From Neophaeotheca triangularis (taxonomy: Eukaryota), in assembly GCA_054600435.1 (NCBI GenBank), contig BAAIJX010000005.1, forward strand, positions 744,001 to 808,000: DNA of 64,000 nt. Reading direction: 5' to 3'. How positions within the stretch are numbered: position 1 is the first letter of the stretch; each line of letters begins with the position of its first letter. This document shows, one piece after another, positions 2 to 58,602 of this stretch. The position numbers and the translations under genes were made by a program. The notes below the pieces were generated by a model. That model was not told the origin of the DNA. It saw only the letters and a program-made list of their open reading frames with translations, and did not search any database.

Positions 2-1150
2 TATATCGCCGTCGAGCTATGTCAGGCTTCGCTCTACGAAGTTTGGGAAGCTGAAAAGGCAAGAACGGACGAGCGCCAACAGCAGCTGCGCCTGCTGAAG
101 TTCACCATCCAACAAGACATTCCCAGAACACTGCAACAGCTTGCGGCCGGGCTGCATCACCTGCACAATCTGCGCATCATTCACCGAGACATAAAGCCCC
201 AAAACATTCTCGTCGCTTACCCCAAGAAACACCAAGCTACCGGACCACGACTTGTCATTTCAGACTTCGGCTTGGGTAAGAACTTACCGGAGAACGTGAG
301 CACGCTCATCGATCCCACGGGGAATGCAGGCACGTCCGGCTGGAAAGCACCCGAGCTCATCTCTCAACCCAGAGAGTCGGAAAGCAGACACAGCCAGTCC
401 GTCAACGGCTCCCACACGGGTGGCAGCGAACCCGGCGGTCCTTCAGGTGTCAAACGAGCCGCCGACATCTTTAGTCTGGGCTGCCTCTTCTTCTGGGTCC
501 TAACCGACGGCATCCACCCCTTTGAAGATGACAATGGCTGGACACAACTCCGCGAACTCAATATCAAACGTGACAACAAGAAAATGGGCGTTCTCGAGCG
601 CTGGTCCGACGCCTACGAGCCCATGTCCCTTATTACCAGCATGCTCGAACACCAGCCAGAGAACCGACCCACGGCACTCCAAGTCCTCAACCACCCCTTT
701 TTCTGGACACCGGAGAAGCGGCTCTCCTTCCTCTGCGACGTGAGCGACCATTTCGAACGCGAGCCCCGCAGCTTAGACGGCCACTACCCACACCCGTCGG
801 CCCAGCTCAACGCGCTCGAAGACCGCGCTTACGAGGTCATCGGCATCGAGGACGCGAGTAGGGACGGCGGCTTCTTGGACAAGCTCGACAGACACTTCGT
901 CGAGACGCTAGGCAAGCAGCGCAAGTACACGGGCGACCGATTGTTGGACTTGCTCCGCGCACTGCGGAACAAGAAGAATCATTACGAAGATATGCCTGAA
1001 GGGGTCAAGAAGATTGTCGGCCCCTTGGCGGGCGGGTATTTGATGTTTTGGACCAGTCGTTTTCCGAGGTTGTTGATGGCTTGTTACGAGGTGGTGCACG
1101 AGTGTGAGGTGCAGGGTAATGATCGATTCAGGGGGTATTTTGCTACTTGA
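2..1150 (+). CDS. IRE1: IRE1 kinase/endoribonuclease, 3' portion (5' end outside window)
   Basis: Frame open from nt 2: YIAVELCQASL, HRDIKPQNIL, ISDFGL, GTSGWKAPE, DIFSLGC, then KEN RNase domain (LCDVSDHFERE, DLLRALRNKKNHY). Confidence 0.97.
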   Translation, partial: YIAVELCQASLYEVWEAEKARTDERQQQLRLLKFTIQQDIPRTLQQLAAGLHHLHNLRIIHRDIKPQNILVAYPKKHQATGPRLVISDFGLGKNLPENVSTLIDPTGNAGTSGWKAPELISQPRESESRHSQSVNGSHTGGSEPGGPSGVKRAADIFSLGCLFFWVLTDGIHPFEDDNGWTQLRELNIKRDNKKMGVLERWSDAYEPMSLITSMLEHQPENRPTALQVLNHPFFWTPEKRLSFLCDVSDHFEREPRSLDGHYPHPSAQLNALEDRAYEVIGIEDASRDGGFLDKLDRHFVETLGKQRKYTGDRLLDLLRALRNKKNHYEDMPEGVKKIVGPLAGGYLMFWTSRFPRLLMACYEVVHECEVQGNDRFRGYFAT

Positions 1151-8395: not shown

Positions 8396-9762
8396 TCAGT
8401 CGTCGTCATCACTACCCGAAAGACCTTCGCTCTCAGACCCCGACCCCACTCCCGCAGAAGCACCCGCCTCAGCATCGGTATTTGCGGCCGACCAATCTGG
8501 TGAATTACCAGCAGGCGAAGACCCCGAGCCCCCTTCGGAATCGCTGTCGGGATCCTCATGCTGAGACAGCTCGAAGATCAATGTAGGCCGGCTGGTTTCT
8601 CGGTCGAAACGGTTAACGGGAGGGGCTTCATGGTGGAAGACGGTAATGGATTTAAGCCGTGTAGTCGAGAATGTCTCCTTGCGCTCGAGAATCAAGCGGG
8701 CGACACCCTCGCCGTGAGGAGTCCCTAGGAGAGCGTAGAAGGCCTCGCGCTTGAGGTTGATGTTCTCAAAGTCTGCAGCGCCCACTTCCATGCGGAAATC
8801 GCAGCGGAAATTCCATTCTGGCGGGCCTGGGTTGCCAAAAGGGGGGCGCCCTATGGCTTGGAAGATGATGTCTTTGGTCTCGGGCGTGGCGATCGATTCT
8901 CGGATAATCATGTTGAGTTCAGCCCTGGCTTCAGGGTCCTGCGCGATTCTCTGCTGCATGCCCTCTAGGAGTGTGAGGAAGATTACGTCCGACCAGTGGT
9001 GGAGGGGGACCAGAGGTTCGTTCTCATTGTTGCCGACCCTAGTGTTGAAAGGACTGATGGCGTCGAAGCTGCTGACTATGCCGCGATCGAAGGCGTACGC
9101 AGCGCGATACCTTGCACCGGTGGCCTTTGGCCTTGTCAGCTATTTCTTTTCATCTGTTACATCTAACGCGCAAGCCTAACCTTGTACGTCACTGCGGGTT
9201 GCCCGTTTTGAGCTGGGATCGTCGTGTCACGATCGTGCTTCCAACTCTTGACAACCACGTTATCGACTTCTTGCCGGCTGCCCATTTGAATGCCTGTTCC
9301 GAGGCGTGGGTTACGATTCCACGTCCCAGCCAAGGCCTCATCTGGGAATCTGAATGGCCTCCGGGAGTGACGTGCAAGCGCTCCAACCGAAGTCTCAGTC
9401 CCGGTCCAGCCGTAGCTCCTCAAGTGTTGGGGACTCCAAGGCGCCTGCTCCACGTAGTTGTATGGGTCTTGAGGATCAATGACTTGTTGAGTTGCCGCAT
9501 TAAGAAGGAGATAGAAATTTCGTCCCCGGTTAACAGCGTCCTCCCATGTGAGTGTACGCTTTTGGATGAGGTGGTCATGGTCGGAGGAGCTACTGTCGAT
9601 GCTAGGGCCCCGGCGGGCGCTGAGGGAATGATGAGAGGCTGCATTGTGCTCGGCGTGCGTGCCAGCTACGAGGCTGAGAACCAGGGTTAGCATGAGGAGT
9701 AGAGCGTACGCTAGCCGGGTGCTGGGAGAACGATGCCTTGAGGCATCAGGATGGTTCGGCAT
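8396..9762 (-). CDS. Secreted hypothetical protein (intron 9180-9125)
   Basis: Hydrophobic signal-like segment and dibasic sites; spliced frame ..YK|ATGARY..LHHWSDVIFL..ALLGTPHGEGVARLILERK..LIFEL joins ORFs 9163-9762 and 8396-8959 in phase. Confidence 0.75.
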
Positions 9763-9871: not shown

Positions 9872-10454
9872 TATCACGGTGGTGGTGGTACTGTGTTCGT
9901 TGGGTGCCAGGAAGAAGAGGTGTGTAGCTTAATAAGTCGGAGCCGCAAGGACATGTGTATGTGACAGCGTTTTGCTGGCGTGGCGGTTGTGAAGAGGTGT
10001 TATGTGGAAGCCAGGTTGTGACACCACTTGTGCTTGTGGAAGAGACCCATGTGTTCAAGCTTCGAAACATGTGCTATGTGGAGCTTGGTGCCACTTCTCT
10101 TTGACGACAAATTGCGCTCGATATACCTCTCGACTCTGGATTATAGTGAGACGTGATCGCATTTTAGGCTTAAAGCTAGAAATCAGAGTTACAAAGGCTG
10201 TACCAGACCCAGCAGGCCATAGAAAAGAATGAAGGCGATTCCCGAGGTCGCTGTACTACAAGGTGCGACAGGTTGTGAAGTAGCTCAGGATGGGATTCAG
10301 ACATGAATGAAGCGATATTATATCCAAAAGTGCAAATAAAGACACCGGCGCTGTCATTATGCGTGTTGCTTCCTATACGTCCACATATCAGTTTGCGTAA
10401 TGAAAGGAAAAAGACATGATCAAAGTGGCAAAAAGAAAGACGAGAGCTCACTGC

Positions 10455-10464
10455 GATTCGAACC
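10455..10464 (-). promoter_or_regulatory. Pol III B box (TFIIIC site) downstream of the ncRNA terminator
   Basis: Minus strand GGTTCGAATC matches GGTTCGANTC(C); not part of an intact tRNA; ~65 nt past the T6 run. Confidence 0.65.
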
Positions 10465-10527
10465 TGCGCACTTGAAAGAGCCAAAGAGAGTAGGAAAGTG
10501 AAGGAATTCTCCACCCCTGAGCGCAGC

Positions 10528-10533
10528 AAAAAA
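10528..10533 (-). terminator. Pol III oligo(T) terminator
   Basis: T6 on the minus strand immediately after the 3' stem-loop. Confidence 0.7.
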
Positions 10534-10768
10534 GTTCGGGTGTCTACGAGTGTGTTCAGGTATACTCGGACTTCCCTACGTCTTTATGGGTCGGCTACGC
10601 CTGGTGTATGCGGAAGCTGATGGGCGTTGATACCACTCATTTTGCGGGAAACCACGCAGGTAGAGGGATCGACTCGGGTTGCGGGATACCACGCAGATCG
10701 AGCTTTTGCCAACGTTCTTTCGAAGTCGTCAAGTTGCGGGAAAGCACACAAAGACTTGACGCGACGGA

Positions 10769-10779
10769 CCGGTACACCA
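10769..10779 (-). promoter_or_regulatory. Internal Pol III A box (+14 to +24)
   Basis: TGGTGTACCGG matches TRGYNNANNNG. Confidence 0.55.
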
Positions 10780-10813
10780 GACGTCGCCGACCATTATTTC
10801 GGTTCCGAAATCA

Positions 10814-10824
10814 TTTTATATATA
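10814..10824 (-). promoter_or_regulatory. TATA box of the ncRNA
   Basis: TATATATAAAA begins 32 nt upstream of the first paired G (10792). Confidence 0.7.
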
Positions 10825-11169
10825 GCTTCATTTAATTTGTCTTCGAAGTGAGAGACTGCAGGCGCTACGTCACTAGGCTGTCGGTGCCGTCATCAAGAGA
10901 GGATAGCCTCAGGCATGCCGCTGTAAGGGGTCCAAGCGTACTGAAATGGGCAGATTCGATCGCACTGTAGGGGGCGCCTGAGGGGCCTACAAGCGATAAG
11001 CCTTCACTCAATATCGGGCCTGGGTGGAGGGGGCGTCCTTCCTTCAACCGCAGTTACTCACCCCATGCTGAATAGATGTGTATTTTCCTTTGGACTCAGG
11101 GATTGCCTTGCTATATCGAAGCCTCGCTCTTTCCGGAATTTTCTTGCTGGTGCATGACAGCCTTCAGGC

Positions 11170-11466
11170 TTACTCTTTCTTCTGGGTCTCTTGGGACTTC
11201 TCGCTCGAACCGGCTTCTCCCTGCTTGACTTCCCCGACATCCTGCTGGTCTTTCTCGGCCTGTGCCAGCAACATCTCAATCTTCGCCTCCATACTGCTCA
11301 GCTGGTTCTCCAACGCTGTCGCAGTCCGTTCGCCCTTTGCGAGCTCTTGGAAGGCCTGCGAGGGGCATCAGCGAAAGCTCGACGGAAGACTGATGGCAAT
11401 TCTCACTTTCGCCAGGTCTGCCTCATCCGTACCCTCCGACGAGGCTTGTGGCTTCTCCGGCGCCAT
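11170..11466 (-). CDS. Small 81-aa coiled-coil protein, 2 exons (11466-11407, 11355-11170); absent from ORF track
   Basis: MAPEKPQASSEGTDEADLAK|AFQELAKGERTATALENQLSSMEAKIEMLLAQAEK..KKE*; GTGAGA..GCTGAT..CAG intron, phase 0. Confidence 0.78.
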
Positions 11467-39254: not shown

Positions 39255-40283
39255 ATGGCGCCAACCAGAAAGACTCCAACCGGTGGATCCTCCAAAAGTA
39301 CCCCAGCTCCGCAGGCCAAGAAGACACGCAAGCCAAGAAAGATGATGAGCGCAAAGAAGGTCGACCCGGAGCGGAGCAGAATGTAAGGCTGCCCTCTAGC
39401 AACGTTTAACCAAGCGTGAAAGTCAATTCCCGAGAGCGATGGAGACTAATCAGATCGTGACAGCTACATCAAGAACCAGCAAGACAGCCCTCTGCTAAAG
39501 CTTCCACCTGAGGTCCGGAATATGATATGGGGCTTCGTTCTTGGCGGCAATACCATCCACATATGCGTGGGACAAAACAGTGCAAGCCGTAAATGGGGTC
39601 GCATCTACCATACTGTCTGCTTGAACGACACATCGGATACGGAATATGCGAAGGAAGTGAAAACGCGGCCGTCAGTTTCCTGCGAGCCTTCCATGGAGCG
39701 CCATGAGGCCTGCAAGCCTCTCAGCCATGGTTTCAGCGATGAGCACAAAGAGTACCTCACCAACTGTCTCGTACTCCTCGAAGCGTGTCGACAAGTCCAT
39801 GAAGAGGCTGCGCTATTGCCCTTCAGCAGCAATGCTTTCAGTCTGTGGGGTTTCCAGCAGCTCGAACTTTTCTGCAATTCAATGTTATGCCCGCAGGCCG
39901 CGGCGATCAAGAATGTCACTCTTCATTGCCACTATGACTCTTTTATTAGACTGGGAGGACCGGGAAGTCCTGAGTACGGGGATGTCATTTGCAAGAAGAT
40001 CAAGGCGCTGGATTCGATGAACATGCTCATACACGTGGGGGGCACCGACATTCCCATTTTTGTTCAGTCTGGTGAAATGGACGCAAAATTGTGGTTTGAC
40101 TTGGAATGGATAACTTGGTTCGGTCGAGTCTCGAAGCCCATCAAGTCTGCCACGGTTGCGATTACTTTTGAGGCTGGATCATCATGGGTCAGGAGCCCTA
40201 CGTCTCCGCACGGTCTTGTGGCAGAGGAAGTACGGGAGATAGAGAGGAGCATTGAGGATAATTTCGTGGCGAAAAAGGTCTAA
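39255..40283 (+). CDS. DUF7730-like protein, copy 2 (intron 39383-39463)
   Basis: NQQDSPLLKLPPEVRNMIWGFVLGGNTIHI..LLEACRQVHEEAALLPFSSNAFSL; same intron position and phase as copy 1. Confidence 0.78.
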
Positions 40284-57512: not shown

Positions 57513-58602
57513 GTAGCACAACGTGTGCGGGTTGACACAGGTGAGGGTGCTGAATAGACGGCGGGTGTTTTATTGAAGTTCGAATCATGACAGTATTCTG
57601 CGTGTAAGTCTCCAATCGAAAATGTCGATCTTCCACGCTTGCGAGGTTCTCTTTGCTTCGCGCTCCGCTACGTTCTTTCCCGACGTGTCGGAAGGGTTTT
57701 CTTGATAACCCCGCCTTGGATTTTGTGATCCTTGGTGGTCTGATGCTTCTGTGGTACCCTCGATCTTCTTTTCCACACATGTGAGCAAGCCGGTATTGAA
57801 GGTCTTACACGCCACCCGGCGTTCCGGGGGTCGGTGTTCTGGCGGTCTTGTGGGAAGGACTTGAGCGCAAACGAAAGGACCGGCCTCGATTGGCGCGATG
57901 AGACCTCTGCTGGGAGTTGATCGATGGAGAGGGACTCGGCGATTAGAGATGCGGCGTTGAGGCATAAGTAAGAGTCGTTTAAGCGTGAGAAGCCGGGACT
58001 ACTGAGTATAAGTGAGATGAGGTGAAATGAGGTAAGGTGATGCTCCATCCCCGGGGTTATCCTGCCCCTTCGCTGTTGCCTTCACTTTGGACCATTCTCG
58101 CAGGTCTTCTTCACTTGTCGCTCGTACAGCATCCCCTGTCCGGTCATGGCGCAAAAGAAGGAAGAGCTCAATGAATTTCCCGAGAAAGAACGGGGGCTTG
58201 CTGGCACCTCTGGACTACATCTGCCACGCGGTCCTGGTCATATGCTCCACTGTCACCATAGCTTCTTTACAAGAGGGAGGGAGGAGGTGATGTCGTCGAG
58301 CCAGAAACATCCGGCAGCTAGCGCCGGGCGAGACGAACCACCCAGCTCGCTCGCGCCTCCGCGCTAGCTGAGGGACGTGTTTCACCCGGCGACCTCACCT
58401 CGTCTTTTGGGCGAGACGGCAGGTGGTCTACACTGATTGGTGGGCGTAGCAAAGTCTGATGCTCGCTCGGGCCAGACTCACAAGCCTCTAACTAGTCACC
58501 ATGGCCTTTGACCCGTGCGGCTTGGCTCATTGTGAGGTTGTTTGGATCCCTTCCCTGCCTACCTACAGAAAGACATGCAAGTTCATTGGCGCTAGAAGTG
58601 TG

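Follow-up and report, generated by a model that had tools for sequence, protein, structure and literature searches.

A candidate structured small RNA gene with three copies of one hairpin motif in a fungal intergenic region

In a 64-kb stretch of fungal DNA, the whole of which is referred to here as the window, a short hairpin motif is found three times on the minus strand of a single intergenic locus, where its copies are predicted to cap three arms enclosed by a common closing stem. The explanation that we favour is that this locus encodes an independent RNA of ~264 nt, RNA polymerase III being the probable polymerase, in which the duplicated arms have kept the UGSUWUCC hairpin as the reiterated site of one ligand; the RNA would then act trivalently, as scaffold or decoy. 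The whole case rests on one sequence, and we would give this combined reading somewhat less than an even chance of being correct.

The three copies conform to the consensus UGYG-UGSUWUCC-CGCA-A, that is a 4-bp stem with an 8-nt loop, UGSUWUCC, and a following A. When they are aligned with two to three flanking bases, 14 of the 17 columns made up by the 16-mer and the next A are invariant. A preliminary description of the locus had reported three 16-nt copies on the minus strand, each followed by A, with a single C-to-U change in the stem that preserves pairing, and this is exactly what is found (Table 1): the change lies in the apical stem of copy 1, where it gives a U-G pair and leaves the hairpin intact, as do the two variable positions in the loop. 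In copies 2 and 3 the predicted fold would allow the loop to be closed further, with G-G/C-C pairs around a UWU triloop and the U bulged. The pattern TGYGTGSTWTCCCGCA, which describes the motif, has three minus-strand copies and no other exact occurrence in the 64 kb. With up to two mismatches allowed there are four matches in the window, the three exact ones at this locus and a two-mismatch match in an ORF at 39844; shuffled windows gave a mean of 0.24 matches, and none of 100 attained four. When the whole window was scanned, filters off, with a covariance model built for the hairpin, the three copies scored 28.7-30.4 bits and the runner-up 13.8 bits. The motif is real and local, confined to this locus within the window and beyond what is expected by chance. 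No copy in any other transcript of the 64-kb window, such as might mark a competing target, was picked up by the covariance model. A degenerate fourth half-copy is present at the locus, with identities of 91% and 82% to the matching parts of copies 2 and 3, respectively.

The MFE layout of the minus strand consists of the closing stem, the three motif-capped arms and a 60-nt 3' tail with one more hairpin. The two strands of the closing stem are complementary at 18 of 20 positions (90%), are separated by 164 nt and enclose a 204-nt unit containing all three arms; most of their pairs have probabilities of 0.86-1.0. The window has 45 inverted repeats (within 600 nt), and of the 25 longest this alone combines at least 20 nt with 90% complementarity; there is no second copy of it in the 64 kb. 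The region from 10528 to 10795 folds with an MFE of -92.2 kcal/mol (z = -4.0), and for the core alone (10589-10792) z falls to -4.7, with none of 150 shuffles being equally stable. The signal from the core comes mainly from the closing stem, because the three-arm region alone is not unusual (z = -1.3, with 16 of 150 shuffles as stable). For the 3' tail alone the stability is not significant (z = -0.86). Both the MFE fold and the pair probabilities bear out the suggestion that the copies cap separate arms of one folded unit. The outer helices that had been proposed for these arms, GUCAAG/CUUGAC, CUCG/CGAG and CUC/GAG, all exist in the fold, though with unequal support: in arm 1 the pair probabilities are 0.81-1.0 for the lower helix and 0.83-0.84 for the apical stem, whereas the lower helix is weak in both arm 2 and arm 3, at ~0.5. 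The GGUAU of arm 2 might also form a 5-bp loop-loop pairing with AUACC in the hairpin of the tail.

Table 1. Positions of the features of the candidate RNA gene (window coordinates).
Feature	Position	Strand	Description
TATA-like box TATATATAAAA	10824-10814	minus	22-32 nt 5' of the closing stem's first base
Predicted primary transcript, ~264 nt	10529-10792	minus	5' end inferred from TATA spacing, 3' end inferred to lie within T6
Closing stem, 5' strand GGUCGGCGACGUCUGGUGUA	10773-10792	minus	20-nt inverted repeat
Arm 1	10728-10760	minus	7-bp lower helix GUCAAGU/ACUUGAC, CUU bulge, apical hairpin copy 1
Motif copy 1 UGUGUGCUUUCCCGCA	10750-10735	minus	UGUG-UGCUUUCC-CGCA, then A
Arm 2	10673-10702	minus	lower helix CUCG/CGAG (4 bp), 3x3 internal loop, apical hairpin copy 2
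Motif copy 2 UGCGUGGUAUCCCGCA	10695-10680	minus	UGCG-UGGUAUCC-CGCA, then A
Arm 3	10636-10665	minus	lower helix CUC/GAG (3 bp), 4x4 internal loop, apical hairpin copy 3
Motif copy 3 UGCGUGGUUUCCCGCA	10658-10643	minus	UGCG-UGGUUUCC-CGCA, then A
Degenerate fourth half-copy UGAGUGGUAUC	10639-10629	minus	3' of arm 3; 5' half of motif kept, no complementary 3' half
Closing stem, 3' strand UACACCAGGCGUAGCCGACC	10589-10608	minus	one U-G pair, which would be C-A on plus
3'-tail hairpin	10542-10571	minus	GUC-CGAGU ... ACUCG-UA-GAC, 12-nt loop AUACCUGAACAC; MFE structure
T6 run	10533-10528	minus	3' of tail; candidate RNA polymerase III terminator
B-box-like GGTTCGAATC	10464-10455	minus	64 nt beyond T6; putative TFIIIC site

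All three arms can be aligned over ~38 columns, with a U-C...G-A core shared by the lower helices. Over 31 nt the identity between arms 2 and 3 is 81%, and in the same register arm 1 shows 61%; it would therefore seem that the motif spread by internal duplication. The flanks of the motif are thus not unrelated, as the preliminary description had them. Its accompanying view, that simple tandem duplication is not the explanation, stands as far as a regular array is concerned, the copies being unequally spaced (55 and 37 nt) and Tandem Repeats Finder returning no rows at a score of at least 30, but fails in that the arms are paralogous. The arrangement is best read as a dispersed internal duplication of a stem-loop module, not as a regular tandem array. 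Within the alignment, variable columns make up 3 of 17 in the apex (the 16-mer and A) and 16 of 21 in the flanks (Fisher p = 0.0008), from which it appears that the apex has been kept while the remainder has drifted. Arms 2 and 3 differ at six positions, only one of them inside the 17-nt apex (p = 0.05). A recognition site present in several copies would be expected to show such conservation of apex over stem. In the three-arm alignment 24 of 27 cells are paired, two lower-helix pairs have both partners replaced (one from G-C to C-G, the other from A-U to G-C) and one apical pair has changed from C-G to U-G; covariation among only three paralogs is statistically weak, with 46 of 500 shuffles equalling the score. 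Since the arms are paralogous, recent common descent competes with selection as a serious explanation of their similarity, and the conservation of the apex could have arisen from recent duplication or from copying of the 17-mer alone (into arm 1).

The two strands are not separated by folding energy (z = -4.7 for minus versus -4.6 for plus). On the minus strand the 49 proposed pairs comprise 46 Watson-Crick pairs, two U-G pairs and one G-A, the exceptions becoming two C-A and one U-C on the plus strand, and runs of four or more T between 10534 and 10792 number none on minus and two on plus. It is also on the minus strand that signals resembling those of a small RNA gene are seen (Table 1), all of them rare in a window with a G+C content of ~54%. 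Over both strands of the 64 kb there are 11 overlapping matches to TATAWAW, four of which constitute the TATATATAAAA site, and 28 runs of six or more T, of which the one 3' of the tail is the sole example within 10300-10950. The B-box-like GGTTCGAATC is present as a single exact copy in the window versus 0.18 expected, and the looser pattern GGTTCGANNC has four matches on both strands of the window. The 101 nt around the B-box are unstructured (z = +0.92). This box could be a downstream promoter element of the RNA gene, or else a stand-alone TFIIIC site; in yeast such stand-alone sites are termed ETC. ARAGORN gave no tRNA or tRNA-like gene around the B-box at normal or lowered thresholds, and at 60% made implausible intron-bearing calls only. 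Within the predicted transcript an A-box-like sequence, TGGTGTACCGG (10778-10768), agrees at six of the nine specified positions with the consensus TRGCNNAGTGG, and a strict A-box pattern has no match at the locus. Nothing relevant was found at the locus in the way of a bacterial-type promoter or terminator.

Taken together, the layout agrees with a gene of its own, ~264 nt in length, with RNA polymerase III as the probable polymerase and a promoter like that of yeast U6. The yeast U6 gene SNR6 has the TATA near -30, a run of T as its terminator and, past this, a B-box, as here; it differs in that the candidate RNA has no similarity to U6 and that its internal A-box match is poor. Separately, a small hairpin-forming inverted repeat, AUGAUUUCGG / CCGAAAUAAU, is present at 10793-10814 (minus) between the TATA and the closing stem, and would lie within the RNA only if transcription started further upstream than the start given in Table 1.

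The window is eukaryotic and contains families typical of fungi (IRE1-type kinase/RNase, EXS, DUF7730, DUF7708 and NPHP3_N), a domain repertoire from which we infer a filamentous ascomycete. Its ORFs are fragmented, and a short GTGAGA...CAG intron is visible. At its start, positions 2-1150 (+) lie inside an IRE1-type gene (protein kinase and Ribonuc_2-5A) that has no evident connection to the RNA locus. Upstream of the locus and co-oriented with it is a gene of two exons, apparently unannotated, whose product is an 81-aa coiled-coil-like protein (ATG at 11465, TAA at 11172-11170, minus), with an intron of ~51 nt (GTGAGA...CAG) and no Pfam family at E <= 0.001. The next ATG on the minus strand, at 9762, belongs to a secreted-protein gene and is ~1050 nt downstream of the TATA. 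With one gene ending before it and the next start ~1 kb away, the TATA is hard to attribute to the mRNA promoter of a neighbour, which favours its belonging to a small RNA unit. No credible ORF crosses the RNA locus, which has no coding potential.

A search of sequencing runs with an 801-nt query returned two marine metatranscriptome runs, with 0.20 and 0.18 of the sampled words. Each yielded one contig of ~210 nt with a match of at least 99%, over only 10917-11100 in one case and 10895-11100 in the other, just 3' of the stop codon of the 81-aa gene, and these contigs are the probable 3' UTR of that gene. No contig covered the RNA locus, a result that is uninformative on expression either way, as a query of 801 nt dilutes a small RNA. 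A scan of metagenomes for two adjacent motif copies gave three loci and no ortholog. Two of these (L002 and L003) are chance matches inside bacterial-looking coding sequence. The third (L001) is a bacterial-looking 30-nt tandem repeat adjoining an rplK-like ORF and was picked out by the search pattern itself; at 560-713 (minus) it has at least five head-to-tail 30-nt units, GAGCTGTGTGGYATCCCGCARCCATCGCTGC, each containing the 16-mer of the window, which we judge to be coincidence.

The whole 64-kb window gave no match to Rfam 15 at the gathering score, and at E <= 10, with 1001 or 371 bases as query, only chance-level matches to miRNA, snoRNA and cis-regulatory families were returned (12.8-20.5 bits); the families covered include SRP, RNase P/MRP, the U snRNAs, U3, 7SK, Y, vault, telomerase and the Afu RNAs. 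Inspection by eye against consensus sequences gave neither the helix-8 motif of SRP nor U-snRNA signatures, and likewise no telomere-template repeat and no boxes of the C/D or H/ACA type. Several shorter resemblances were noted. The tail sequence AGGGAAGUCCGAG resembles the CR-I box of RNase P/MRP, in a position near the 3' end that is the wrong order for P/MRP. The nucleolin recognition element is UCCCG(A/G); the sequence here is UCCCGC and is partly in a stem. TTTCCCGC is E2F-like, and no E2F is known in Ascomycota. CGUAGGGAAGU resembles a TPP riboswitch, but with its elements wrongly ordered, and Rfam gave no match. The topology is like that of U1 snRNA, with a closing helix round three stem-loops and, after it, single-stranded sequence, another hairpin and a tract rich in U, but the candidate RNA lacks the 5' splice-site recognition sequence and the U1A and 70K loop sequences of U1 and has no Rfam match to it. 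As for the U-tract, a terminator is a better reading of it than an Sm site.

Several other explanations have to be weighed against a reiterated ligand site. The RNA may be a real structured non-coding RNA in which the hairpins are alike solely through recent internal duplication, the arms being architectural and without a shared ligand, and the RNA neither sponge nor scaffold. We consider this unlikely, although several observations favour it: arms 2 and 3 retain the 81% identity over 31 nt, all the arms align, the decayed fourth half-copy speaks of ongoing duplication and decay, and motif copies that might represent competing targets are absent from the rest of the window. Against it, the apex is far better conserved than the flanks, and the variable loop positions and the U-G change keep the hairpin intact. 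A feature acting at the level of DNA seems distinctly unlikely, whether a foldback or MITE-like element with 20-bp TIRs or a cluster of palindromic TGCG-N8-CGCA transcription-factor sites. Terminal inverted repeats of the kind expected are present, 20 bp at 90% on either side of a 204-bp unit, the ends of the motif are palindromic, both strands fold equally well and the locus is intergenic. However, neither the terminal repeat nor the motif has a second copy in the 64 kb, no clean target-site duplication could be read at the repeat ends, and the lower helices differ yet stay complementary, which a protein-binding site in DNA would not need. Moreover, the two wobble pairs favour the minus strand, on which the TATA, T6 and B-box also lie.

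For a lineage-specific and strongly diverged member of a known RNA class beyond the reach of the Rfam models (SRP, MRP/P, U3 or a type such as Afu-202) we see a slim chance. It draws on the CR-I-like sequence in the tail, but that box is out of order, no class signature was seen by eye, and Rfam offered no match at the gathering score and none of relevance at E <= 10. The length of ~264 nt also equals the size given for Afu-202 (PMC2377427). Slimmer still is the chance that the structure is a cis-acting part of a long UTR, either an extended 3' UTR belonging to the 81-aa gene or, for the secreted-protein gene (ATG 9762), a 5' leader of 1 kb. All three units are on the minus strand, in favour of such a reading, but the structure is bracketed by a TATA and a T6 of its own, and neither a 1-kb 5' leader nor a 3' UTR above 600 nt would be usual in a compact fungal genome.

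Under the reading of a reiterated ligand site that we prefer, the locus would be a minus-strand gene for a small, structured non-coding RNA, running from ~10792 to 10529, with the three hairpins as its paralogous apical modules. Its transcription would most likely be by RNA polymerase III from a U6-like promoter, with the TATA near -30, the T6 run and the B-box past the terminator. A stem-loop unit of ~30-37 nt would have been duplicated inside the RNA to give three arms and a decayed fourth half-copy within the 20-bp terminal stem, after which the lower stems may have drifted, partly by compensatory changes, with the apical 17 nt staying nearly invariant. The likeliest reason for this invariance would be that each apex presents the same recognition site to one ligand, probably an RNA-binding protein, in which case the RNA would bind three copies of the ligand at once and could serve as a scaffold or decoy. 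That such an RNA is multivalent, with one ligand site reiterated on it, is plausible but unproven. We think it unlikely that the locus goes so far as to be an undescribed fungal RNA polymerase III transcript acting as a multivalent decoy, with three identical UGSUWUCC hairpins that titrate one RNA-binding protein, and so a functional counterpart of CsrB or 7SK in filamentous ascomycetes.

The comparison with CsrB was already drawn in the preliminary description, and holds at the level of logic only. Like CsrB and RsmZ, the candidate is one RNA showing several copies of one short hairpin-loop motif. The loops of CsrB-type sRNAs carry GGA (ARGGA) and number ~5-22, whereas the loops here are without GGA, there are three sites and a half-site, and the host is eukaryotic with no known CsrA-like partner. 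With 7SK snRNA, the metazoan RNA polymerase III transcript that sequesters P-TEFb via HEXIM, the candidate has in common its size range, the upstream TATA, the U-run terminator and terminal helices, and the idea of an RNA polymerase III transcript as a protein decoy or scaffold is shared; it differs in having no Rfam match to 7SK, and 7SK does not have three identical hairpins. We know of no 7SK from fungi. To our knowledge, and in the literature searched on fungal RNA polymerase III non-coding RNAs, no protein-sponge RNA of either the CsrB or the 7SK type has been described in fungi, and almost no regulatory RNAs that RNA polymerase III transcribes are known in these organisms beyond the housekeeping tRNA, 5S, U6, SRP and RNase P/MRP RNAs. 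If expressed and conserved, the unit would represent a new family of small structured RNAs in Pezizomycotina, with the 17-nt hairpin, present three times, as a testable handle; if it is not expressed it would be a single-copy foldback sequence of little consequence. On the features described, the locus is a reasonable lead to a new fungal non-coding RNA family.

Other RNAs from related fungi offer few points of contact. A study of Aspergillus fumigatus describes unassigned small RNAs, among them Afu-202, Afu-182 and Afu-309, that are conserved in four Aspergilli (Jöchl et al, 2008; PMC2377427), and gives for Afu-202 a 266-nt cDNA and a 270-nt Northern band. A previously undescribed 'intergenic structure 2' of Pezizomycotina, averaging 144 nt and present in 207 genomes, is listed by Gao et al (2021; PMC8216456). 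In their descriptions all of these RNAs resemble the candidate in being intergenic, structured and restricted to Pezizomycotina, the link consisting of size and broad taxon only. Literature searches for Afu-202 and for the names of its flanking genes returned nothing useful, full-text searches with 12-mers of the motif gave unrelated primer matches only, and the motif has no match in the three text supplements of Li and Breaker (2017; PMC5640933). Elsewhere in the window, the longest local inverted repeat lies at 58281-58404, near NACHT/NPHP3_N-type ORFs, and has 44-nt arms that are 75% complementary and 36 nt apart.
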